DNA from: a virus
Lineage: Duplodnaviria; Heunggongvirae; Uroviricota; Caudoviricetes
DNA length: 15,244 nt
Direction: 5' to 3' (one strand)
IMG/VR virus record: IMGVR_UViG_2695420523_000022
The notes below the pieces were generated by a model that did no database searches, was not told the DNA's origin, and saw nothing but the letters and a program-made list of their open reading frames with translations. Positions 1,197-15,244 of this stretch are shown here, one piece after another; the stretch's first letter is position 1, and every line of letters starts with the position of its first letter. The position numbers were made by a program, and so were the translations under genes.

Positions 1197-2858
1197 TTAC
1201 ACCCCGCTAAATTCTTCCAGTTTCTGGCGGTGGCTGTCGCTTATATCAAAAGCAAAATCCTCATGCTCTGCCTGGAATGTACCAAACGCCATCAGCGCCG
1301 CCACGCTCGGGTCTATCTTGTTCGGTGATTTTTTCTTGTTCGGCTTGATATTGGCGTTCGCGTCACTCTGCATCACGACGTTACTCATCGACCAGGACAA
1401 CACCGGATCGCCACGATGCACAATCACCCTGCGGTTAACAAAAACTTCGAACGATTTCGCCGCCGGACTGAATCTGAGGTAGGTTTGCGGGAACGGCTCC
1501 ACCTCAAAACCTGCCCCCTGTAATTGCGTTCTGAGATGCGTGGCGTTCCACGTATCAAAGCCCACCAGCCTGATATTAAATTTCTCCGCGTCCTGCATGA
1601 TGTCATCTCTGATCCGGTCGTAATCAATGCAGTCGCCAGGCGTTGTGCGTATCCAGCCTGCTTTAGCCCACTGACGATAGATGGCGCGGTTTTTATTGGC
1701 GGGGTTCTGTAGCTGGAACTCCGGCAGATAATGACGGGAAACCAGCATAATGGTTTTACCGACCGGAAAGGCATAGCACACGCTGGAAATATCGCTTGTG
1801 GATGATAAATCCAGCCCCGCGTAACACTCCTGGCCGTGTAAATCTTCCTCCGTGAACGTTCCGGCACACTCAGCCCATGCGCCGTTACCCATCCACGGGG
1901 TAGTCCCCTGACACCAGATATTAAATCGCTTTGTCATCATCTCCACCCACTGCGACGGAATACCCCGCGCTTTCTGGATGGTTGAGGCCAGTTTTTCACG
2001 ATCCACGGAAACATCAATATTAGGGTTCGCCTTTATCCACATCGCCGGATCATCAACCTCGTTTTCGTCGTCCAGTTCGTAAATCAGTACAAAAATTGAA
2101 TCGTTGACCTCTTCGCCGTCCAGGATCTGGCAGCAATAATCATAGTGCTGCTTACAGGCTGAAACGACGTTACTGCCTGATGTGGTAATAGCAAATAACA
2201 GCCCTTCGGGACGTGCGCCCATCCCCAGCTCAAGCGCGGAATAAACGCCGTTATCGGGGTGCAAGTGGTATTCGTCCACGATGGCAAGACTCGGGTTTGT
2301 ACCTTCAATGGTTGCCGCTTTTGCTGCCAGCGGCTTTAACAGGCTGTTGCTTTTCGGGTGTATCACCTTATGCGCCTGAATATTCACCCGCCTGCGTAAC
2401 GGTCGGGATAAAAGGCACATCTGACGCGCATCATCAAAGACGATCCGCGCCTGGTCACGGCTCACCGCTGCGGTGTAAATATCCTGCTGACCGTTCTCCA
2501 TAATCAGAAACCAGTCAGCCAGAATCGCGGCGGTCGTGGATTTCGCATTTTTGCGCGGCACTTCGATAAAGGCGCTCGTGTATTTGCGCCGTCCGGTGGC
2601 CTTAACCTTAAAGCCGAGGATGCACGCAAAGGCGAACTGCTGCCACGGCTCCAGCTCAATGGGTCTGCCACGCATCGGCCCTTTTACGTGCGGGCACACC
2701 CTTGAAAAGGCAATAAACCGCTCCACAACCTCACGATCGAACGTGTAAAGGGGGCTTTTAAGGTCCGAAAAGTACCGTTTAACAGCCTGTTTTAACCGTT
2801 TACAGGCCGGAATTTTGCCCGTTTTTACGTCTTCTGCGTACTTATTCCAGGCGGTCAA
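1197..2858 (-). CDS. terL: Terminase large subunit (553 aa)
   Basis: Size and translation typical of a phage terminase ATPase/nuclease large subunit; TTG start at 2858 with strong SD (AAGAGGA, 5-nt spacer) and no in-frame ATG nearby; overlaps terS by 17 nt. Confidence 0.85.
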   Translation of the reverse strand: MTAWNKYAEDVKTGKIPACKRLKQAVKRYFSDLKSPLYTFDREVVERFIAFSRVCPHVKGPMRGRPIELEPWQQFAFACILGFKVKATGRRKYTSAFIEVPRKNAKSTTAAILADWFLIMENGQQDIYTAAVSRDQARIVFDDARQMCLLSRPLRRRVNIQAHKVIHPKSNSLLKPLAAKAATIEGTNPSLAIVDEYHLHPDNGVYSALELGMGARPEGLLFAITTSGSNVVSACKQHYDYCCQILDGEEVNDSIFVLIYELDDENEVDDPAMWIKANPNIDVSVDREKLASTIQKARGIPSQWVEMMTKRFNIWCQGTTPWMGNGAWAECAGTFTEEDLHGQECYAGLDLSSTSDISSVCYAFPVGKTIMLVSRHYLPEFQLQNPANKNRAIYRQWAKAGWIRTTPGDCIDYDRIRDDIMQDAEKFNIRLVGFDTWNATHLRTQLQGAGFEVEPFPQTYLRFSPAAKSFEVFVNRRVIVHRGDPVLSWSMSNVVMQSDANANIKPNKKKSPNKIDPSVAALMAFGTFQAEHEDFAFDISDSHRQKLEEFSGV

Positions 2859-3198
2859 GCTCGTCCTCTTCTTCTGTTTCCGGTGGATTTTTACGGCGGC
2901 TTACCGGGTCAAAACCGAGCAAGGAGGCCATTTTTATCATCACTCTTTCAGCGTCGGATTTTGCGCTTAATGCGGGGTTTCTGCTCTCGCCGCCCTGACT
3001 GTTAACAATGCTGAACCCGCGTGCCGCAAGGTCTGCGACGGCTTTCCGGTATATCGAGTAATTGACGCAATACAGTTCCAGATTACTCCAGTCGGCGGGG
3101 GTAAGGTCTCCCCGTTCCGCAAGCTGCCGCGATTTTTCCCGCCACTGCTTCACGGCGATATCATCCAGGTAGGCGGGGGCTTTCGGTGGTCTTGCCAT
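2842..3198 (-). CDS. terS: Terminase small subunit, P27 family (118 aa)
   Basis: N-terminus MARPPKAPAYLDD and overall composition match the P27-family small terminase as I recall it; immediately upstream of terL. Confidence 0.75.
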   Translation of the reverse strand: MARPPKAPAYLDDIAVKQWREKSRQLAERGDLTPADWSNLELYCVNYSIYRKAVADLAARGFSIVNSQGGESRNPALSAKSDAERVMIKMASLLGFDPVSRRKNPPETEEEDELDRLE

Positions 3199-3321
3199 GC
3201 TTATTTTTTCGCCAGATTATTTTTCAAAAAATTCCCGTGCATAAAAATTTGAGGAGGCGTTCGGTGCCCGGCGGGGTCGGGTTTGTCCTGAAAACGCCCC
3301 CCACCCCGTCATACAGCCTCA

Positions 3322-3504
3322 TCAGCGATTGCGGAAACATTCCATAACCTCGCGGTCACGGTCGGTTAATCGCTTCGCTGTGATGCGTTCTGCGCGTCCT
3401 GACGCTTTATCTTTATGCCCTGTTTCCTGTGTCTTCCATGCGTCACGCTGCCTTATAAGTCCACGGATAAGGCGTTTTTGTTCCCGCTCATTCATCAGCG
3501 TCAT
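3322..3504 (-). CDS. Possible small basic protein (60 aa) between HNH and terS; uncertain
   Basis: ATG at 3504 gives MTLMNEREQKRLIRGLIRQRDAWK, overlapping the HNH stop by 17 nt; weak SD; could be a spurious frame. Confidence 0.25.
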   Translation of the reverse strand: MTLMNEREQKRLIRGLIRQRDAWKTQETGHKDKASGRAERITAKRLTDRDREVMECFRNR

Positions 3505-3928
3505 ACATCCAGTTATTGCGGTTAGCGGCCCGTTCTTCCTCTTCACGAAATCCACCTGCGGCACGCTTGCTTTTTGTTGCTGGATCAAGCCACTTCGTTT
3601 TCTGGTTATGACACGCCTGGCACAATGGCTGATGGTTCCATTCGGGCCAGAAGAGAACATCATCACCGCCATTAATCGGGATAATGTGATCCACCACCAC
3701 GGCGGGCGTATATATCCCCTTCTCAAGGCATCGCACGCATAACGGGTTTTTACTCAGATACATGGCGCGGTATTTTTCCCACTGTCTGGAGTACCCACGC
3801 GCGCGGCGGTGTCCTCGTCTGGCATCCTCTGCACGCCATGCCGCCCGCCTGTGCTCCTCACACTTGCCGGACTTAACGCGCCTGTTACAGCCTGGTTCTG
3901 TACATCGTCTTAATGGTTGCCACGGCAT
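3488..3928 (-). CDS. HNH endonuclease (146 aa), packaging-associated
   Basis: Cys pairs (CTEPGC, CEEH, CVRC, CQACH) plus DHIIP and NHQPLC motifs typical of HNH; placed directly before terS/terL as in HK97-like phages; ATG overlaps the connector stop. Confidence 0.8.
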   Translation of the reverse strand: MPWQPLRRCTEPGCNRRVKSGKCEEHRRAAWRAEDARRGHRRARGYSRQWEKYRAMYLSKNPLCVRCLEKGIYTPAVVVDHIIPINGGDDVLFWPEWNHQPLCQACHNQKTKWLDPATKSKRAAGGFREEEERAANRNNWMYDADE

Positions 3929-4224
3929 CAGTACACCCCCACATCACGGTAAGCCGTCCAGAGCGCGCCAATCGTCATGGGTACGCGCGTTTTTGCGTTA
4001 TCCGCTACCAGCTGGCGATTCTCGTACAGGTGAGCGATAAACATCATGCAGCCAATCTTTATGGCTGGCGTGAACTCCAGCCCGTCATCAAAGCGCCTGC
4101 CTATATGTATCTGGCACGCCTCAAGCGATGCGGCAATGTATCCGCTGATTAACTGGTCTTCCTCGTCGCCATCGATGCGGCAATGGAGTTTCACTTCTTC
4201 CAGGGTGATAAGTTCTTCTGTCAT
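3928..4224 (-). CDS. Head-tail connector protein, gp6-like (98 aa)
   Basis: MTEELITLEEVKLHCRIDGDEEDQLISGYIAAS matches the gp6-like connector N-terminal pattern; position between head closure and HNH. Confidence 0.65.
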   Translation of the reverse strand: MTEELITLEEVKLHCRIDGDEEDQLISGYIAASLEACQIHIGRRFDDGLEFTPAIKIGCMMFIAHLYENRQLVADNAKTRVPMTIGALWTAYRDVGVY

Positions 4225-4559
4225 TTTTCCGCGCCCTCACGACAAAGAATTTCAAGGCGTGTCCTGGCGGCATCCGGCAGCGGTTGCCCGATGATATTCA
4301 GTACACGCCCCGCCAGCGGCCCCGTATTGACCTTTATCCGGCTGGTGGCGTTGATGTCCTTCCGGTACCGTATCCAGATCCTTACGGTACCAATCGCCAG
4401 CTCTGCACCCGATGAAATGGCCTCCTTGCTGCTGATCATGTTCACGCTTGCCCAGAGTGTGTGACCGTCCTCCCACGTTTCGAGTATTTCGCCGGTTATA
4501 TCCCTGGTCTGTTTCAGGGTCTGAATCGTTACCCTGTCACGCAGTCGCCCTATGTTCAT
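4221..4559 (-). CDS. Head closure / head-tail adaptor protein (112 aa from ATG at 4559)
   Basis: RDRVTIQ...WASV...IRYRKDI...RI pattern typical of the head-tail joining family; ATG at 4559 overlaps the portal stop; the track ORF extends to 4601 but has no better start. Confidence 0.65.
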   Translation of the reverse strand: MNIGRLRDRVTIQTLKQTRDITGEILETWEDGHTLWASVNMISSKEAISSGAELAIGTVRIWIRYRKDINATSRIKVNTGPLAGRVLNIIGQPLPDAARTRLEILCREGAEK

Positions 4560-5767
4560 TCCGGTTTTTCTCCCTCGCTGATTTTTACTTCCTGTTTCCA
4601 TGCCTGGCTGAACTCATCACCACCATCACGCGGGGACAGCCCTTCACGTTCGCGGGCTTCGTTCGGGCACATAACGCCGGATTTGATGCCGCGTTCATAG
4701 GTGGCAAAGCGTTCGCCAGGTGTGGCCCGTAACAGGTCCGCGCTGTCAAACTCCACCTGATACCGGATACCAGGTACAGGCGAGGCCACCAGCAGGGCGT
4801 TTTTTATCTGCTGCTCAAAGTTCGCCAGCCACGGGCGCATTGTCATGGTGAGAAATGCGCGGCTTGCCTCGCTGAAATTGCTGTAGGTGCTGTTGCTGTA
4901 TTCCTGCAGAAAAATCGGCGAGACGTTGAACATTCGGGCGATGTCTTCAATGGTGAAGCGACGGGAGGCCAGCCATTCAGCATCCTGATTACTCATGCCC
5001 AGCTGCTGATAGCTCATACCCCCTTCAAGAATGGGCGTTTTTCCGGCGTTTCTGGCTCCTTTGTAGCGTTCCAGTGCGGCTAATGCCTGTTTGCCCTTCA
5101 CGCCGTCCAGCCATTCGCCTGACGTGATAACCCCTGCCGCCATCATGCCATCACGCATCACGCTCGCGCCGTGGCGTTGTTGGGCCAGCCCAAGCCCCAG
5201 CGATTCGCGGCAGATGGTTACAGGTGAGCGCCCCATAAAACCGTCATCCGTGGAGTAACGAAGGTGGAGAACCTCCCACGGTAAATAGTTGCGGGTGTTT
5301 CCGGTGTAGGCGTCAGTGATGCAGTAGCGCCAGTTATGCTCACCTGTCTGCTCAACGTTCACCGACTGCGGCGGGTAAGGATGTAAAGCCACCGGAAAAC
5401 CATCACGCCCCCACTGAATCACCGCATAAGCATTACCGTTTAACAGGCAGTGGCGGATCATCATTCGCTTAAACTGGTAGGGAGTCTGCCACGCGTTCGG
5501 GCGCTCGTTGAGGATGTGATCGACCGGATGAGAATCAAGCCACTCGCGGGCCTCCTTCCCCTTCTCATTGCGTACCAGGTACAGGTAACACGGCATGGTA
5601 GCCACCGCCTCAGAGATGACCGTCACGGCGTTCATGACGGCGGGCAGTGATTCCGCTGTCCCCGATGATACGTACTCACCCGCCCCCGTGTTCGATGTGC
5701 CAGCCAGCGCCATAAATTCATCAAGCGTCATGCTGCGCTGCTCTTTTTTTCTTCTGAAAAGCCACAT
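4556..5767 (-). CDS. Portal protein, HK97 family (403 aa)
   Basis: Size, composition and position between prohead protease and head closure; ATG at 5767 is 1 nt after the protease stop. Confidence 0.8.
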   Translation of the reverse strand: MWLFRRKKEQRSMTLDEFMALAGTSNTGAGEYVSSGTAESLPAVMNAVTVISEAVATMPCYLYLVRNEKGKEAREWLDSHPVDHILNERPNAWQTPYQFKRMMIRHCLLNGNAYAVIQWGRDGFPVALHPYPPQSVNVEQTGEHNWRYCITDAYTGNTRNYLPWEVLHLRYSTDDGFMGRSPVTICRESLGLGLAQQRHGASVMRDGMMAAGVITSGEWLDGVKGKQALAALERYKGARNAGKTPILEGGMSYQQLGMSNQDAEWLASRRFTIEDIARMFNVSPIFLQEYSNSTYSNFSEASRAFLTMTMRPWLANFEQQIKNALLVASPVPGIRYQVEFDSADLLRATPGERFATYERGIKSGVMCPNEAREREGLSPRDGGDEFSQAWKQEVKISEGEKPE

Positions 5768-5768
5768 A

Positions 5769-6341
5769 TCACACCCCCGCTAAATCCACCCACCAGCGGC
5801 GATTATCCGCACGCGGCATTTTTTCTGGGTGCTGCTCATACAGGGAACGGCGGGCCAGCTCCACGCCGGAATCGGGGTAAGCCGGTACCGATGTAACGGT
5901 AATTTCGTACAGTTCCGCCACCAGCACGGTGCGCACGCATGGATCTGTTGTGGTATCCCATACATCCTTACGGGAGCGAAAGCCAAAGCTCATCCCCGAG
6001 ATGTCCCCACGCTTAACCAGTTCGATAACGTCGCGCCCTGTACTGGTATCCGGTGGGGTCAGTTCAAAGCGTAACCCTGTTTCGTCCTCTTCCAGTTTCA
6101 GCGTGCCGGAACGGGTACGCCCCAGCAACATGCTGTGGTCATGCTCATACAGGCCGCGAACGTCATTACCCACCGCAAGCCATTCAGTAAACGCTCCCCG
6201 CTGGAATTTTTCGTAAAACTCCCCCCATAGCAGCTCTGAAAGCTTATCCCAGCGAACAACGTAGCCTGTAAGCGTGTTGCTGGCGCTGGTGGTGATTTCC
6301 GATGACCGGATTTCCATACTCTTCATAATTTTTTCACCCAT
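5769..6341 (-). CDS. Prohead maturation protease, HK97 family (about 185-190 aa)
   Basis: Translation typical of the HK97 prohead protease; lies between capsid and portal; start ambiguous among ATGs at 6341, 6326 and 6317. Confidence 0.75.
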   Translation of the reverse strand: MGEKIMKSMEIRSSEITTSASNTLTGYVVRWDKLSELLWGEFYEKFQRGAFTEWLAVGNDVRGLYEHDHSMLLGRTRSGTLKLEEDETGLRFELTPPDTSTGRDVIELVKRGDISGMSFGFRSRKDVWDTTTDPCVRTVLVAELYEITVTSVPAYPDSGVELARRSLYEQHPEKMPRADNRRWWVDLAGV

Positions 6342-6370
6342 AAAACACTAAAGGGGCTTTTAAGCCCCTT
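6342..6370 (-). terminator. GC-rich hairpin plus U-rich tract between the capsid and protease genes; probable partial terminator or attenuator
   Basis: Minus strand reads AAGGGGCTT-AA-AAGCCCCTT followed by TAGTGTTTTATG, 10 nt after the capsid stop. Confidence 0.5.
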
Positions 6371-6380
6371 CTGTATGCTG

Positions 6381-7538
6381 TTAATCGTCGTCCTGTGGCA
6401 GTTCCAGAATCTTGATCGCGTTCGAATCCACCACGCCACCGCCTAAATATTTCTGCGTGAAAATTTTGATGAAGCCCGGCTCTGTGAGGTTGTCCGGTCT
6501 GGTGCGAACACCTGTTTCGTGATCAACAATGTAGTAACCGCGTTTGAAGTCACCCAGGGCAATAACGTTATCAGGCATAAACTCCAGATATTCGACCGGA
6601 AGGCCCAGCAACGTATCAGGATCACCCGCCTGTAAACGGTCGCGCCAGATGTAATCACCGTTCGCGTTCTTCACCTTCTGAAGTTTTGCCGCCGTCGTGG
6701 AGTTAACCACCCAGACCGCGTTTTTGCGGTATTTTTTACGTAATGCAAATTTCAGGTCGATCAGCGGGTCAGCAGATGTCCACGCCAGAGATTCGGAAGG
6801 TTTAATTACCTGTAACGTACCAAAATCACGCTCTTTGTCGTTCTTCTCTGCACGGGGTACGGATAAAAAGCCTTTTGCTTTTTTGTCACCGTCGCCCACA
6901 ACCAGATCGCTTTCTTCGGTTTCCGTGAAGGTGTCGCCAATCTCACCCGTCAGCCATGAAAGGATGTCCACATCGGAAAAATCCACGATTTCCTGTGTGG
7001 TGCGCGGGTACGCATAGACCGGATACAGCTTAATGCTCACCTCGTTAATCTGCGGGGTGCTGGTCTGTTCGCGTGTCTTACCCTCTTCACCGTGGTTAAC
7101 GGTCGCACCGCCAGCGGAAACAAGCTGCTTAAACTCGTTGCTGCTGATTTTCTTCACGGTACAGATGCGGCGCATGGTGGATTCATCCGTCAGCATTCGC
7201 ATGATTTCGGTGTTCAGTTCGGGGATAACGGTATAACCACCATCAGCGGGAACGCCTGTACTTAATGCGCGGGTTTCACCTGTCAGGATGTAGTTGCGGA
7301 GTTCTGCCGGGTCAGTGGTCTGGCTGCTTTTACCTGGCTTGCTGCGCTCTTCGTCTGCAATGGCTTCAAGGCGGGAAATGTCTTTATCGAGGGATTCAGC
7401 TTTAGCGCGTAATTCGTCAAATTTTGCGCCCTCAGCATCGTTAAGACTGCGGTTTTCTTTTTCCGCGTTCTCCAGCATGTCGCGCATCTGATTTTTAATG
7501 GCGGTTTTCTGCTGGCGTAATTCGATTATTCTCGGCAT
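6381..7538 (-). CDS. Major capsid protein, HK97 fold (385 aa) with N-terminal coiled-coil delta/scaffold domain
   Basis: N-terminal 100 aa are charged and helical (ELRQQKTAIKNQMRDMLENAEKENR...), as in HK97-type capsid delta domains; C-terminal part resembles HK97-family capsids; followed by protease and portal. Confidence 0.85.
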   Translation of the reverse strand: MPRIIELRQQKTAIKNQMRDMLENAEKENRSLNDAEGAKFDELRAKAESLDKDISRLEAIADEERSKPGKSSQTTDPAELRNYILTGETRALSTGVPADGGYTVIPELNTEIMRMLTDESTMRRICTVKKISSNEFKQLVSAGGATVNHGEEGKTREQTSTPQINEVSIKLYPVYAYPRTTQEIVDFSDVDILSWLTGEIGDTFTETEESDLVVGDGDKKAKGFLSVPRAEKNDKERDFGTLQVIKPSESLAWTSADPLIDLKFALRKKYRKNAVWVVNSTTAAKLQKVKNANGDYIWRDRLQAGDPDTLLGLPVEYLEFMPDNVIALGDFKRGYYIVDHETGVRTRPDNLTEPGFIKIFTQKYLGGGVVDSNAIKILELPQDDD

Positions 7539-7575
7539 AAAAAAAGTCCTGGGGTTAAGTAAGGAACTCCAGGAC
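7539..7575 (-). promoter_or_regulatory. Terminator-like hairpin with U7 tract directly abutting the capsid ATG; stem contains the only SD-like AGGA
   Basis: Minus strand: GTCCTGGAGTT-CCTTACTT-AACCCCAGGAC-TTTTTTT-ATG (stem 7 bp + mismatch + 3 bp). Confidence 0.5.
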
Positions 7576-7752
7576 GCGGCAAAAACTCAACCGTTTTTCA
7601 TAAGGAAATCAGCAATCGCACCGATCGTTTTCCCGCCTGGTAATGAATATTGGCGAGAACATTAACAGGCGGAAAAGTGGCCCCAGCGTCCTGGCACCAC
7701 GGGCGAGAATAATCATGATTCAGTTCGGGTAAAATATGCCGATCCTGTCAGT

Positions 7753-7790: not shown

Positions 7791-7819
7791 AAATGACAAA
7801 AAGCCGGATTGCTCCGGCT
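7791..7819 (-). terminator. Rho-independent terminator after the 74-aa ORF
   Basis: Minus strand: GCCGGAGCAATCCGGC followed by TTTTTGTCATTTTTT, 11 nt after the stop at 7830. Confidence 0.75.
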
Positions 7820-7829
7820 GTATGCGTGC

Positions 7830-8054
7830 TCAGTCCCTGATCCCTTTCAGAAATTCTATCAATGCATCTATCTGTTCAGGATTTACCGCCAGCATTTCAC
7901 CGGACAGAGCACATCTCACAAAACCATGCTGATCCTTTTCAATCAGTGCGCCCGTCTCCAGGAATGCGCGGTAATCATTGATGCTCATCGTCTCCATGTT
8001 GTCAGCATGGTATTTATCACGCTGTTTTAATATCTCATCAAATTTCATCGGCAT
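7830..8054 (-). CDS. Hypothetical protein (74 aa), moron-like with its own terminator
   Basis: ATG at 8054 (MPMKFDEILKQRDKYHADN...) with SD AGAGGA at 7-nt spacing; flanked by terminators on both sides. Confidence 0.5.
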   Translation of the reverse strand: MPMKFDEILKQRDKYHADNMETMSINDYRAFLETGALIEKDQHGFVRCALSGEMLAVNPEQIDALIEFLKGIRD

Positions 8055-8149
8055 TGTTTTTTCCTCTGTTGTGTCTGTTTGTTTCAGATAGTAACTATGC
8101 CTGACCGTGACGAAAACCCGGTAATGCGCCATACCGTTTCAACTGGTGC

Positions 8150-8173
8150 AAAAAAAGCCGGATTTCTCCGGCT
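8150..8173 (-). terminator. Rho-independent terminator after the PerC-like gene
   Basis: Minus strand: AGCCGGAGAAATCCGGCT followed by TTTTTTT, 5 nt after the stop at 8179; near-identical to the 7791-7819 terminator. Confidence 0.8.
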
Positions 8174-12053: not shown

Positions 12054-12273
12054 GTACCCCTCCGCATTTTTTTTCGTTAGAAATAAGCGTTCTTCTTTCC
12101 TGTTCATCGCTCAGGAATACGCAGACCTCACCGCTAAGGCGTTTAAGTAAGCCGATGATTGCCCCTGATTCGCTGTCGGTCATCATGCCAGGGTAATCCT
12201 CTGCCAGTGCGCAAATAACTTCGATTTGGTGGGCGCGTTCTGCTGCCTGTTGTAGTGTGATTTCCTGGCTCAT
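12043..12273 (-). CDS. Hypothetical protein (76 aa)
   Basis: ATG at 12273 overlapping the upstream stop (ATGA); SD AGGGGG 8 nt upstream. Confidence 0.45.
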   Translation of the reverse strand: MSQEITLQQAAERAHQIEVICALAEDYPGMMTDSESGAIIGLLKRLSGEVCVFLSDEQERRTLISNEKKCGGVHVQ

Positions 12274-12470
12274 AAGCCTACCCCCTGACGAATACGGGCA
12301 GCAAATACCATCACGCAGCCAGCCGGAGATTGCTGGCGTGCTTCCTGTTCGCTGGTGGCCTCAATGGTAATCACGCGCGGTTGTGCCGTGCTCAGGGCGA
12401 TAAAACGCCAGATGTATTTATTCAGGTTGTGCGAGTCCCGCCCTTGCGGGTGTATGGTATAATTTCTCAT
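12270..12470 (-). CDS. Small protein (66 aa), first gene of the leftward operon; possibly Icd-like (P4-type host cell division inhibitor family), tentative
   Basis: ATG at 12470 with SD GAGG at 5-nt spacing; MRNYTIHPQGRD...IWRFIALSTAQPRVITIEATSEQEARQQSPAGCVMVFAARIRQG resembles Icd-like satellite proteins as I recall them. Confidence 0.4.
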   Translation of the reverse strand: MRNYTIHPQGRDSHNLNKYIWRFIALSTAQPRVITIEATSEQEARQQSPAGCVMVFAARIRQGVGL

Positions 12471-12567
12471 AGCTGCCTCGATACTGTTGCTATCGTTGGT
12501 GGTTAGACGCCCTGCATGTGTTGCGAGCACTGCGGGGCGTTGCTTAATTTGAGTAACAAAACTCAAA

Positions 12568-12648
12568 CTGTGCGCACAGATTAAAATCATGTGTGCGCAC
12601 ATGTCAATACTTAACATCTCATTTTTTTTACTGTATTGTGTGCGCCCA
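12568..12648. promoter_or_regulatory. Divergent promoter region with three TGTGCGCACA-type operators (12569-12578, 12592-12601, imperfect 12639-12648)
   Basis: Leftward promoter: -35 TTGACA (revcomp of 12602-12607), 16-nt spacer, -10 TTTAAT (revcomp of 12580-12585); one operator fills the spacer, one sits at the predicted start site. Rightward promoter: -35 TTAACA 12611-12616, -10 TATTGT 12634-12639, overlapped by the third operator. Confidence 0.6.
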
Positions 12649-12675
12649 TAAAGTCCATTTAAGTGAGGTGCATCA

Positions 12676-12873
12676 ATGTCTAGCGGTAACAAAAACAACA
12701 AATCAGCAAAGAAAAATATTCGATTCCCACATGAGCTTATAGATGGGATTGATGCCAGCGTTGAACAAGAAAAATTAACTAATCCTAGTGCTAATTTTTC
12801 CGCATGGGTCTTAGATGCCTGTGGACGCAAATTAAAATATGAACAGCGCCGGAAGGCCAAAGAATCAGAATAA
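12676..12873 (+). CDS. YlcI/YnfO-family (DUF3950) small protein, likely ribbon-helix-helix DNA binder (65 aa); candidate island repressor
   Basis: NIRFPHELIDGIDASV...NFSAWVLDACGRKL matches the YlcI pattern (NIRFP...NFSAWVIEACRRRL) as I recall it; SD GTGAGGTG 6 nt upstream; divergent from the operator-bearing promoter. Confidence 0.65.
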   Translation: MSSGNKNNKSAKKNIRFPHELIDGIDASVEQEKLTNPSANFSAWVLDACGRKLKYEQRRKAKESE

Positions 12874-12930
12874 TCACTATCAGCGCCGTGGTGTGAGGAA
12901 CTACGGCGCATTTCTTTACAGGAGTAGACA

Positions 12931-13116
12931 ATGAACAACGAAGAATTACGGGAAATCGCATTATCCATACTTGAAAGACAGGTAGAAAAAAAATTAAGAG
13001 AAATGGATGAAATGCCTGACCATGAACAGGAAGCAAGGCCAAAAAGATTTGCCCTTGAGGATTTTCTTAAAAATTGCCCAAGAAAGATGAGATCGTGGCG
13101 TTGTTGTCCGCCCTGA
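12931..13116 (+). CDS. Hypothetical protein (61 aa) downstream of the ylcI-like gene
   Basis: ATG at 12931 with strong SD AGGAG at 6-nt spacing; MNNEELREIALSILERQVEKKLREMDE... Confidence 0.5.
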   Translation: MNNEELREIALSILERQVEKKLREMDEMPDHEQEARPKRFALEDFLKNCPRKMRSWRCCPP

Positions 13117-13288
13117 TGACAGATTTGCCAACCAGCCAAAAATGTGGCATCGTTGTCGATGCATAGTGTAATCAACATGTATATCATATTTTTGCCTGTA
13201 ATCCGGCAATTGTGGCGCTTCTTCACACAGTTGATATAATTCCAATGCTCATATTTATTTTTTGTGCAGCAGGTTAATCGTTCACAAA

Positions 13289-13318
13289 GGCGCTCAGGTA
13301 ACTGGGCGCTTTTTGTTA
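13289..13318 (+). terminator. Rho-independent terminator between the convergent alpA and ylcI-like transcripts (probably bidirectional)
   Basis: GGCGCTCAG-GTAA-CTGGGCGCT (9-bp stem with two G-U pairs) followed by TTTTTGTT; CCTTTGTG on the other strand. Confidence 0.6.
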
Positions 13319-13463
13319 TGCCTGAAAAACCCCAATTTTGTTGTTTTTCAGTTTCACCAGGGCGAACGAATCCCCGCCCACGTTCTGGCGTATATTCAAT
13401 CTTCATGGTTATAGCTCTGTGTTCAGATGATTGATGTGTGGCGGCTGCGTGCCGCCAGCGTGA

Positions 13464-14026: not shown

Positions 14027-15244
14027 TTATTTTCTTCTGGCTACTGGTAGCGTGGTTACGTTTTCATGTGTTCCCGCCAGTATCCCTAACCGCTCCATCC
14101 ACATATCCAGCACATTGCGTTTAGCATCCAGATAACGGGAATGATTATAAACTCGCTGCATTCCTGGCATCTGGTGGCCTGTAAGCTGCTCCACGACATG
14201 CGGATCAACGCCTAAATCGTTCAGCATGGTTGTAAAGGTGCGCCGGATGTCATGCAGTGACCAGTGAGGATGATTAAGCCTCCTGTGCGCTAATCTTCCA
14301 TACTGCGATACGCTGGCCTCCTGTTTCACTTCCCCCAGCAATAAGCCCGTGTGCCTGTTCTGCTCCACCAGCTGCGTGACGAACGGCAGGATCGCTTCCG
14401 GTATGGGCCGGAATATTGCGACCTTCGTTTTGCTGTGCTCCTTCGGAACGGTCCATAGCATTTCCGTAAAATCCCACTCCCCGATCTCCGATAGCCTCAG
14501 TTCTACCGTCCTGGCTCCGAAGACAATCAGGAGGCGGATTAACGCGACGTAGTAAGGGGAAAATATTTTTTTGTCCAGTGCCTGCAATAATTCGCCAAGT
14601 TCTTTGTTACTTAAGACACGTTCGCTTATATCCGGTTTTTTCCCAACGTCCGCCACGTTCAGATCGTCCAGAACGTTGCTGATTGCATAGCGCCGCCTAC
14701 GGCAGAACTTAAGCGCCTGTTTGCACGCCTGTAGCACGAATCCGGCAGTAACAGGCGTTCGCTTTGCCACCAGGTCAAAACAGGCCAGCCAGTGCCGTAG
14801 CTCGCATTTATCCAGCGGCATAGCACCAATCTGCTGTATTACGTGATTATTAAGTCGCCTTTTCAGGGCGATATAATCCACGCGGTTTTCCTTTACGTAA
14901 TACTCAAGCCAATAGGTGAGCGCATCGCCAACCGTTACGGGCTTTAACGCTTCCTGTACGGTGTAATTCATCTCATGACGTGGATTTTTCCCCTCAGCCA
15001 GCCATGTGCGACACTGTGCGGCTTTTTCCCTGGCTGCTTTCAGGCTCAGATCAGGATAACTTCCCAGCTTAATGCGTTCGGGTCGTGTCTCCCTTCCCGT
15101 TCCGGCCCTGTATGTGAAATACCAGGTCAATTTCCCTGATGTTAAATATTTCACGCTCAGGTTTCCGCCATCACTATAAAACGTGTTTTTCTCCGCTGGC
15201 TTACCATGAAGTTTCCTTAGCAAGGTATCGCTCAGTTTGTTCAT
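14027..15244 (-). CDS. int: Tyrosine integrase, P4-type with N-terminal arm-binding domain (405 aa)
   Basis: N-terminus ...FYSDGGNLSVKYLTSGKLTWYFTYR...IKLGSYPDLSLKAAREKA matches the P4-like integrase N-domain; C-terminal HDIRRT...H..Y catalytic region; ATG sits exactly at the window edge, so the true start and promoter are unseen. Confidence 0.85.
   Translation of the reverse strand: MNKLSDTLLRKLHGKPAEKNTFYSDGGNLSVKYLTSGKLTWYFTYRAGTGRETRPERIKLGSYPDLSLKAAREKAAQCRTWLAEGKNPRHEMNYTVQEALKPVTVGDALTYWLEYYVKENRVDYIALKRRLNNHVIQQIGAMPLDKCELRHWLACFDLVAKRTPVTAGFVLQACKQALKFCRRRRYAISNVLDDLNVADVGKKPDISERVLSNKELGELLQALDKKIFSPYYVALIRLLIVFGARTVELRLSEIGEWDFTEMLWTVPKEHSKTKVAIFRPIPEAILPFVTQLVEQNRHTGLLLGEVKQEASVSQYGRLAHRRLNHPHWSLHDIRRTFTTMLNDLGVDPHVVEQLTGHQMPGMQRVYNHSRYLDAKRNVLDMWMERLGILAGTHENVTTLPVARRK

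Follow-up and report, generated by a model that had tools for sequence, protein, structure and literature searches.

A post-capsid hairpin in the packaging operon of an EcCIEDL933-type capsid-forming PICI

When the capsid gene stands at the front of a packaging operon and is followed directly by an RNA hairpin, does the hairpin lower the expression of the portal, connector and terminase genes behind it? The question arises from a 15,244-nt viral DNA (IMG/VR record IMGVR_UViG_2695420523_000022; hereafter "the window", meaning the whole stretch that was analyzed). An earlier note on this DNA read the hairpin as an attenuator and as a companion of the reversed head-gene order.

The element and the order of its head genes

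The window is an E. coli phage satellite, a capsid-forming PICI (cf-PICI) of the EcCIEDL933 type, which is already well described. Of 5426 complete E. coli genomes, 857 contain related DNA, with a top match of 99.1% identity, and the region of the capsid–protease junction was 99.2% identical to O157:H7 genomes. The capsid protein itself matched an E. coli protein cluster with 1722 members at 99% identity. In locus L001, a near-identical island of ≈14 kb is located inside tqsA; it encodes an integrase, a RepA-like helicase, SSB and PerC, but lacks tail genes. The backbone of the window consists of the same genes, with the integrase (PF00589 and PF13356) at 14027–15244 and a RepA-like helicase of the AAA_25 family. 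No tail genes were found in the window by a survey of open reading frames, Pfam and PHROGs, and no alpA gene was specifically identified in it. The window has the make-up of a cf-PICI, that is, a chromosomal island of ≈15 kb that encodes an integrase and has a replication module but is devoid of tail and lysis genes, and it carries a full head and packaging gene set of its own. The genes for capsid, protease, portal, head–tail connectors, HNH endonuclease, TerS and TerL, eight in all, scored above the Pfam gathering thresholds and were also recovered in PHROGs (Table 1).

EcCIEDL933, which we infer from the gene names and the description in the paper to be the cryptic prophage CP-933C (O-island 51) of E. 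coli O157:H7, has the same gene content in the same published order, and shares with the window the integrase, the replication helicase and the lack of tail genes; nothing material sets the two apart. EcCIEDL933 was shown experimentally to form small, T = 4 capsids, to package only itself and to hijack the tails of its helper (Alqurainy et al., bioRxiv 10.1101/2022.09.08.507074). With ≈99% identity between the two, the element in the window would be expected to behave likewise in all three respects.

The Pfam and PHROGs calls confirmed that the capsid gene comes first and the terminase genes last, with all genes on the minus strand. The term "inverted" that had been applied to this order is correct in the sense of reversed, but does not extend to an inversion of strand. 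Compared to HK97, the capsid–protease–portal block and the Hc1–Ad1 pair are each reversed, while HNH–TerS–TerL are arranged as on the circular HK97 map. The comparison of gene order between satellites and HK97-like phages that the earlier note had suggested gave the capsid-first order in 160 of 160 satellite loci, each scored as far as its contig extends, while the 80 related phages all lacked it. (The phages came from an IMG/VR scan with a phage-only capsid alignment; a prior scan with a mixed capsid alignment had returned satellites only.) The published order for Proteobacterial cf-PICIs is "capsid-protease-portal-head connectors ... hnh-terS-terL", and the Firmicute groups have other orders (Alqurainy et al., bioRxiv 10.1101/2022.09.08.507074). 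The capsid-first, terminase-last arrangement is the fixed layout of the Proteobacterial cf-PICI clade and is already in the literature.

The junctions within 3488–7538 touch or overlap (+1 to −4 nt), as previously described, apart from that between the capsid and protease genes, which are 39 nt apart. Protease and portal are separated by 1 nt, portal and Hc1 overlap by 4 nt (using the Hc1 start from the PGAP annotation of L001), Hc1 and Ad1 by 4 nt, and Ad1 and HNH by 1 nt. The capsid–protease gap had been called the only sizeable one, which is true for 3488–7538; however, a larger gap of 123 nt lies just outside, upstream of TerS, and is probably the cos region by analogy with the HNH–cos–TerS layout of HK97. 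The 60-aa ORF, which overlaps HNH by 17 nt, also falls outside 3488–7538, together with TerS and TerL, which overlap each other by 17 nt. The probable start of the protease is the second in-frame ATG, at 6326. This codon, which is preceded by an SD-like GGGUGA, was chosen since it lines up with the GGAG-N-ATG conserved in the relatives; the gap to the capsid gene would then be 54 nt.

Table 1. Genes and RNA features of the packaging operon, in order of position in the window.
Feature	Position	Strand	Evidence and remarks
Large terminase TerL	1197-2858	-	PF03354, PF20441, phrog_9 1.5e-179; final head gene of operon
Small terminase TerS (P27 family)	2842-3198	-	PF05119 4e-24
Non-coding gap with G-rich and C-rich blocks, 123 nt	3199-3321	-	Sequence, junction table; upstream of TerS
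Conserved 60-aa ORF	3322-3504	-	phrog_3173 5e-35; hypothetical in L001
HNH endonuclease (packaging accessory, as HK97 gp74)	3488-3928	-	PF01844, phrog_144 8.6e-45
Head-tail adaptor Ad1 (gp6-like)	3928-4224	-	PF05135, phrog_40
Head closure Hc1 (HK97 gp7-like)	4221-4559	-	PF05521, phrog_25
Portal protein	4556-5767	-	PF04860 9e-91
Prohead serine protease (S78)	5769-6341	-	PF04586 9e-48
Interrupted U-tract UUUAGUGUUUU	6342-6352	-	Sequence; from last G:C pair
Post-capsid RNA hairpin GAAGGGGCU-UAAA-AGCCCCUUU	6350-6371	-	Folding, z -4.7
Major capsid protein (HK97 fold, 385 aa)	6381-7538	-	PF05065 2.3e-61, phrog_10 1.8e-88; first gene of packaging operon
Strong terminator hairpin AGCCGGAGCAAUCCGGCU and U-run	7802-7819	-	z -4.2; upstream boundary insulating packaging operon

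The hairpin and its U-tract

The hairpin begins 9 nt past the capsid stop codon (TAA, 6383–6381), well within the ≈30 nt expected of a GC hairpin in this position in the HK97 lineage, whichever gene follows. Residues 6371–6363 pair with 6358–6350 to form a stem of nine pairs, five of them G:C, closed by the UAAA loop; both stem and loop are of a size found in intrinsic terminators (GC-rich stem of ≈5–14 bp, loop of 3–8 nt). The 41-nt intergenic RNA had a minimum free energy of −17.3 kcal/mol (z = −4.7), and none of 200 shuffled sequences folded as well, although the same hairpin in a 91-nt context gave a z of only −1.85. Among the 27 terminator-like matches in the window it ranked second. The GC hairpin with a U-tract that had been reported between capsid and protease is thus present and is predicted to fold, but its U-tract is neither long nor continuous: of the 11 nt of UUUAGUGUUUU, 8 are U, with a break after three, compared with the uninterrupted U-rich tract of ≈7–9 nt directly 3′ of the stem in an intrinsic terminator. 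In addition, the stem takes up the first three U in pairs with its 5′ AAG/GAA. Such a tract would make a terminator that is leaky at best. The relatives have mostly U3–U5.

Scanned against Rfam 15, the whole window had nothing at E ≤ 1 inside the operon or close to it; the sole match was a chance-level sRNA at 13262–13316. We also considered a bidirectional terminator, which was rejected on account of the plus-strand tail, UUCUGUAUG, and because no plus-strand genes converge there.

The hairpin in phages and satellites

A GC hairpin just past the capsid stop was found in all 80 phage relatives with the normal gene order, with 53 distinct stem sequences, and at the same position in HK97, ST64B, YeP1 and VW-6S. 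The idea that the hairpin accompanies the reversed order is therefore not borne out. In HK97, the GenBank record (NC_002167) itself marks a "putative terminator" at 5192–5213, directly after gp5 and before gp6. This hairpin, GGGGGCGGG-GAAA-CCCGCCC followed by UUUU, is GC-rich and starts a few nucleotides past the capsid stop, and agrees with that of the window in its position and in the fold lineage of the capsid protein that precedes it. Unlike in the window, the connector and tail genes lie downstream of it, and portal and protease upstream. These comparisons indicate that the satellite acquired the hairpin from HK97-like phages along with the capsid gene, and that such a hairpin is standard for HK97-like head modules. 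Apart from the feature in the HK97 record, we found no explicit description of a post-capsid hairpin in the literature on cf-PICIs or HK97, and the word "terminator" did not occur in the cf-PICI literature searched, making the hairpin an unremarked detail. The hairpins begin 1–15 nt after the stop codon, so that a terminating ribosome could delay their folding.

Approximately 90% of 157 satellite loci with complete operons have kept the hairpin. In two sets of 78 and 79 satellite loci, 65 and 74, respectively, have it just past the capsid stop, compared with 0–5% for most of the other head genes. Around 15 of the 157 complete satellites, so the hairpin is dispensable, have none, and in these the capsid and protease genes adjoin or overlap; the Xenorhabdus type is one example of a hairpin-less island. 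Of 83 distinct satellite junctions, 74 have a run of at least three U (T in the DNA) behind the GC core. The GC core and the proximal TTT are at least 90% conserved over a range of 57–100% capsid identity, while loops and spacers vary; in alignment A2, the proximal TTT reached at least 90% conservation with variable 5′ pairing partners. The Proteus loci have a different, longer stem in place of this hairpin, followed by a run of five or six T.

Covariation of the satellite stem was evaluated by building a covariance model from 42 junctions, realigning 73 matches and counting pairs. The result was not significant (among 500 shuffles, 18 equalled the number of pairs changed on both sides, and a shift of the partner by +1 scored equally), owing to a stem that is a near-invariant GGGG/CCCC. 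The case for an RNA structure is based instead on a conserved core amid scrambled flanks, a replaced stem in Proteus and a diversity of stems in the phages; kept by ≈90% of satellite loci, the hairpin is under selection.

The phage hairpins often lack a terminator-like tail. In 34 of 54 distinct phage hairpins at this position, no U directly follows the stem, for which reason the ancestral role may have been protection of the 3′ end rather than termination. T-runs of three or more were present at 89% of distinct satellite junctions compared to 24% of distinct phage junctions, a difference that is confounded by host taxon, since the phage loci include many sequences of an apparently GC-rich, Pseudomonas type.

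Possible roles of the hairpin

On balance, we favor a reading of the locus as a cf-PICI operon in which the phage-inherited hairpin serves as a leaky Rho-independent terminator, yielding more capsid message than downstream message. A fraction of transcripts would stop at the interrupted U-tract, with their 3′ ends shielded by the stem, and the remainder would read through into the protease, portal, connector, HNH and terminase genes, leaving the capsid message in excess. The hairpin would presumably act in the RNA, terminate transcription in part and influence the ratios between the proteins. It is plausible that dosage should fall behind the capsid gene, since a T = 4 capsid comprises 240 capsid subunits, and ≈235–240 of these are needed for each 12-subunit portal (≈20:1). 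Phages T7 and LUZ100 have a terminator immediately 3′ of the major capsid gene (PMC10134795), and inefficient terminators serve to balance expression levels (PMC9163698). As would be the case in the window, T-phi of T7 and the LUZ100 terminator come directly behind the most abundant structural gene, and the genes beyond, those for the terminase included, are served at reduced levels by read-through (PMC10134795; PMC9163698). However, these are unrelated phages with a phage-encoded RNA polymerase and terminators that were mapped experimentally, whereas the polymerase in the window is presumably that of the host and the hairpin is known from sequence. The attenuator reading put forward in the earlier note is only partly supported, because ≈10% of complete satellites do without the hairpin.

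It is possible, though rather unlikely, that the hairpin does not terminate at all, but blocks 3′-to-5′ exonucleases after endonucleolytic processing and thereby produces a long-lived capsid message. Differential mRNA stability within a polycistron is known from papBA, pufBA and the REP of malEFG, in which stem-loops similarly placed after the most-needed gene confer segmental stability. This would agree with the lack of a U-tract in most phage hairpins at this position, with the very stable UUCG loop of many stems, and with a second hairpin, at 7549–7579, just 5′ of the capsid start, by which the capsid cistron is bracketed. Moreover, the Q protein renders late transcription terminator-resistant in lambdoid phages, including HK97, so that termination at the HK97 post-capsid hairpin is doubtful and a role there cannot rely on it. 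Yet the papBA, pufBA and malEFG hairpins act without termination, whereas the conserved proximal U-run in the window suggests some termination; the conservation of this UUU in the satellites in spite of variable 5′ partners points to selection on the U-run itself, and there is no indication of an antiterminated polymerase on the satellite operon. We consider it clearly unlikely that the reversed order and the hairpin co-evolved as a dosage device, in which the capsid gene would have come to the front to let an attenuator keep portal, connectors and terminase low, with the hairpin as the main determinant of stoichiometry. The invariant order in the satellites, their more terminator-like hairpins and the tight or overlapping downstream junctions, which leave room for a single transcriptional step-down, would fit such a device. 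However, the presence of the hairpin in normal-order phages and HK97 makes it older than the rearrangement, some complete satellites manage without it, the T-run contrast is subject to the host-taxon confounding, and cf-PICIs of the Firmicute groups employ other orders. Even more doubtful is the idea that the capsid cistron forms a self-contained dosage cassette, in which the two bracketing hairpins set, and perhaps place under the control of helper infection, the ≈20:1 ratio of capsid to portal. The U-run of the 3′ hairpin might then have been reinforced, compared to its phage ancestors, once the capsid gene had come to lead the operon, and the cassette would add a satellite-specific layer of post-transcriptional control.

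An effect on translation, in which the hairpin breaks the coupling between ribosomes leaving the capsid gene and initiation at the protease start, so that the protease is left to its own weak ribosome-binding site, is very unlikely. The hairpin does lie past the stop codon and ahead of the protease SD (≈10–15 nt upstream of the GGAG in relatives), and the abutting or overlapping genes of the hairpin-less lineages suggest coupling there, but the SD itself is outside the stem and phages carry the same hairpin before unrelated downstream genes. There is scarcely any likelihood that the hairpin merely came along with the capsid gene, as a relic devoid of function or as a module boundary at the level of the DNA. 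Although the non-significant covariation and the loss from some lineages would be consistent with a relic, this would not explain the retention of GC core and TTT next to a scrambled spacer and loop, the independent replacement in Proteus, the many distinct phage stems at one position, or the rarity of hairpins after other head genes.

With the element and its gene order already published, and a post-capsid hairpin ordinary for HK97-like modules, the analysis amounts mainly to a tidying of the annotation. What it adds is comparative, namely that the hairpin traveled with the capsid gene through the rearrangement. Retained in ≈90% of satellites, nearly always with a short U-run, the hairpin would offer a handle on how a minimal capsid-building operon sets its capsid:portal ratio of ≈20:1, which might be of use where cf-PICI particles are engineered for delivery.

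Upstream of the capsid gene, the operon is bounded by a strong terminator (Table 1). In EDL933, the upstream gene Z1846 had 69 RPKM compared to 2 RPKM for the capsid gene, Z1847. A strand-specific transcriptome table for uninduced EDL933 listed 0–4 RPKM for Z1847–Z1854 in all 11 conditions; the operon is silent, and the table is thus uninformative on attenuation. In a ciprofloxacin study, just a few CP-933C/CP-933T genes appeared, which were down-regulated. A stem-count statistic for the 5′ hairpin ahead of the capsid gene was dropped, because its criterion was so permissive that 67% would be expected in shuffles. The window copy of this hairpin folds better than shuffled sequences (z −3.4) and has an SD-like sequence in its 3′ arm, and lineages have the stems TCCTGG/CCAGGA, GGTTTC/GAAACC and CTGCATG/CATGCAG at the same place.

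Gene order of the element

The window is a capsid-forming phage-inducible chromosomal island (cf-PICI) of the type of EcCIEDL933 from E. coli O157:H7. Its head genes are transcribed from one strand in the order listed in the table. Upstream of the head operon lie genes for a tyrosine integrase, a DUF4222 protein, a RepA-like AAA_25 helicase, an SSB and a PerC-family activator; a gene survey of the full window found no tail or lysis genes. Related DNA was present in 857 of 5426 complete E. coli genomes (megablast), and the top match (locus L001) was 99.1% identical, in an island of ≈14 kb inserted at tqsA. O157:H7 strains had 99.2% identity to the window at the capsid–protease junction, and homologues are labelled “prophage CP-933C” proteins in the source annotations.

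Features of the window, with the head genes in order of transcription
Feature	Coordinates	Strand	Basis
Major capsid protein gene	6381–7538	minus	Pfam + PHROGs
S78 prohead protease gene, as listed	5769–6341	minus	Pfam + PHROGs
Portal gene	4556–5767	minus	Pfam + PHROGs
Head closure Hc1 gene	4221–4559	minus	Pfam + PHROGs
Head-tail adaptor Ad1 gene	3928–4224	minus	Pfam + PHROGs
HNH endonuclease gene	3488–3928	minus	Pfam + PHROGs
Conserved 60-aa ORF	3322–3504	minus	Pfam/PHROGs survey
Small terminase (TerS) gene	2842–3198	minus	Pfam + PHROGs
Large terminase (TerL) gene	1197–2858	minus	Pfam + PHROGs
100-aa ORF	7830–8132		phrog_1957
378-aa ORF	12270–13406	minus	
Non-coding gap before TerS	3199–3321		
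Post-capsid hairpin	6371–6350		
Hairpin 5′ of capsid	7549–7579	minus	
Paired terminator hairpins	8156–8173, 7802–7819	minus	
Terminator-like hairpin	12883–12909	plus	

Gene order was compared in two satellite samples and one phage sample. The satellites were 80 loci in GTDB species genomes (capsids 63–98% identical; Shigella, Proteus, Xenorhabdus, Photorhabdus, Serratia, Erwinia, Gilliamella and others) and 80 IMG/VR loci (L087–L166); the phages, also 80 loci, belong to the nearest true phage capsid family (ST64B/YeP1/VW-6S type), whose capsids are 33–37% identical to that of the window. The capsid-first, terminase-last order, which the earlier note had set against that of HK97-like phages, was kept to the limit of each contig in 80/80 GTDB and 80/80 IMG/VR satellite loci and in none of the phage loci, where TerS-TerL-portal-protease-capsid-Ad1-Hc1 was found in 80/80. 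Relative to HK97, capsid, protease and portal are reversed, as are Hc1 and Ad1, with no strand inversion, while HNH-TerS-TerL is the same as in the circular HK97 arrangement. The reversed order is correct and is prior knowledge: both it and the element were already known, and the Proteobacterial cf-PICI layout, ending hnh-terS-terL, has been published (Alqurainy et al., bioRxiv 10.1101/2022.09.08.507074).

Single Xenorhabdus genomes carry several separate loci, four or five apiece in X. anantnagensis, X. innexi and X. mauleonii. Several 15–17 kb “phage” records, among them vB_KppS-Ant and Pasteurella phage Pmp8 (LR881103, OR544139), have capsids 58–65% identical to that of the window, and by size and capsid similarity look like cf-PICIs deposited as phages.

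With PGAP starts, the capsid–protease spacing is +39 nt, and the remaining junctions within 3488–7538 (+1, −4, −4 and −1) are tight or overlapping, as claimed. Farther on, the spacings are −17 (HNH/60-aa ORF), +123 (before TerS) and −17 (TerS/TerL). The capsid–protease gap is therefore the sole sizeable one within 3488–7538, but the gap before TerS, just outside, is larger and the largest of the operon. This gap contains G-rich (GGGGTGGGGGGCG) and C-rich (CCCGACCCCGCCGGGC) blocks and, by analogy with the HNH-cos-TerS layout of HK97, is likely to be the cos site. The listed protease start, ATG 6341, which PGAP also uses in L001, sits within the U-tract of the hairpin. A second in-frame ATG at 6326, five codons on, has GGGUGA ahead of it and lines up with the GGAG-N-ATG that relatives conserve (6324–6341 region); it is probably the true start, which would make the capsid–protease gap 54 nt.

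The hairpin after the capsid gene

The hairpin, GAAGGGGCU-UAAA-AGCCCCUUU, begins 9 nt after the capsid stop codon (TAA, 6383–6381), and the U-rich tail 3′ of its GC core, UUUAGUGUUUU, is broken after three U. The intergenic RNA (41 nt) has a fold of −17.3 kcal/mol (z = −4.7; 0/200 shuffles as stable), although folding within 91 nt of sequence gives a z of only −1.85. The GC hairpin with U-tract is thus present where it had been described, confirming the observation as to both structure and gene order. Rfam contains no family that matches it, and the word “terminator” was not found in the text of the published cf-PICI descriptions searched.

Using a criterion of ΔG ≤ −7 kcal/mol and a start within 30 nt of the stop codon, a post-capsid GC hairpin was found in 65/78 genome loci and 74/79 IMG/VR loci. 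Other head genes were followed by such a hairpin in 0–5% of cases, the sole exception being a weak 5-bp in-frame portal stem in one subclade. This small, conserved stem, TGGCC-(G/T/A)TTT-GGCCG, lies 13 nt inside the portal CDS past the protease stop in 29/77 IMG/VR loci (−7.4 to −8.0 kcal/mol) and may be a mere coding constraint. Once three threshold failures were rescued, ≈15 of 157 satellites truly lacked the post-capsid hairpin; their operons are complete, with the capsid stop 0–20 nt from the protease start or overlapping it.

In satellites, conservation is at least 90% for the GGGGC/GCCCC core and adjoining TTT. The loop (UUCG, UACG, ACAAC, UAAA and others) is variable, as are the spacer and the distal tail; Proteus loci have a different, longer stem followed by five or six consecutive T. 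A formal covariation test did not reach significance, owing to the slippery homopolymer that forms the stem; selection is therefore argued from conservation amid scrambled flanks and from replacement of the stem.

The HK97 GenBank record has a “putative terminator” (5192–5213) directly 3′ of the major head gene gp5, which folds as GGGGGCGGG-GAAA-CCCGCCC followed by UUUU. A GC hairpin also lies within the 40–50 nt downstream of the capsid gene in ST64B, YeP1 and VW-6S, and one is present in 80/80 normal-order phage loci (53 distinct sequences), strong evidence that what persists here is structure rather than sequence. The satellite thus inherited the hairpin along with the capsid gene; rearrangement altered the genes downstream, not the hairpin, which is not tied to the reversed order. 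It is of the same kind as that already annotated in HK97.

Terminator or stabiliser

We lean towards reading the satellite hairpin as a leaky intrinsic terminator that also protects the 3′ ends of its products. Leaky termination would leave capsid message above downstream message, and transcripts ending at the hairpin would be shielded by the stem. A run of at least three T directly follows the GC core in 74/83 distinct satellite junctions (on average 4.7 T per 8 nt), and conservation of these T exceeds that of the 5′ A/G residues able to pair with them; both features argue for termination. That the hairpin is a stabiliser only, with no termination, is less likely. In 34/54 distinct hairpins from phages the stem is not followed by T, pointing to a stabilising role, at least ancestrally; the satellite–phage difference is confounded by host taxon. 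Late transcription of the HK97 type is Q-antiterminated, which counts towards the same ancestral role. For the preferred leaky terminator, the U-tract of the window, broken after three U, predicts no more than weak termination. Since the stem starts 1–15 nt past the stop codon, part of it would be covered by a terminating ribosome, and this would further favour read-through.

Terminator or stabiliser alike would raise capsid over downstream message, matching a T = 4 shell with its 240 subunit positions. T7 and LUZ100 have a terminator immediately 3′ of the major capsid gene (PMC10134795), and inefficient terminators serve to balance phage gene expression (PMC9163698). The proposal that the hairpin sets capsid dosage above that of downstream genes finds partial support. 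A dosage step following capsid is plausible, but the hairpin is generic and inherited, and ≈10% of complete satellites dispense with it.

Upstream hairpins and expression

In strand-specific EDL933 transcriptomes the operon is silent (LB RPKM: Z1847 capsid 2, Z1848 protease 2, Z1849 portal 0), while Z1846, directly upstream of capsid, reaches 69; these values say only that the strong terminator at 7819–7802 insulates the operon. Z1846 probably corresponds to the 100-aa ORF. This ORF lies between two strong, nearly identical terminator hairpins, AGCCGGAG(A/C)AAUCCGGCU followed by a U-run, and from its position is probably RgdR/ECs1581, a type III secretion regulator located on CP-933C (PMC3378721).

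Another hairpin, GUCCUGG-(16 nt)-CCAGGAC, lies just upstream of the capsid ATG (7538), with U8 between it and the start codon. It has a z of −3.4 (a simple enrichment statistic was uninformative), and its 3′ arm holds AGGA, the sole SD-like motif before the capsid gene. Relatives have other stems at the same place, GGTTTC/GAAACC (≈50 distinct sequences), CTGCATG/CATGCAG and GGTGTT/AACACC, with the U-run confined to the E. coli type. Its role could be that of a 5′ stabiliser, of an operator or of a translational control that occludes the SD.

The 378-aa ORF, without a Pfam match, lies in a low-GC stretch (0.41–0.44, against ≈0.53 elsewhere) and is possibly accessory cargo. Within its bounds, but on the opposite strand, is the terminator-like hairpin that ranks first in the window.
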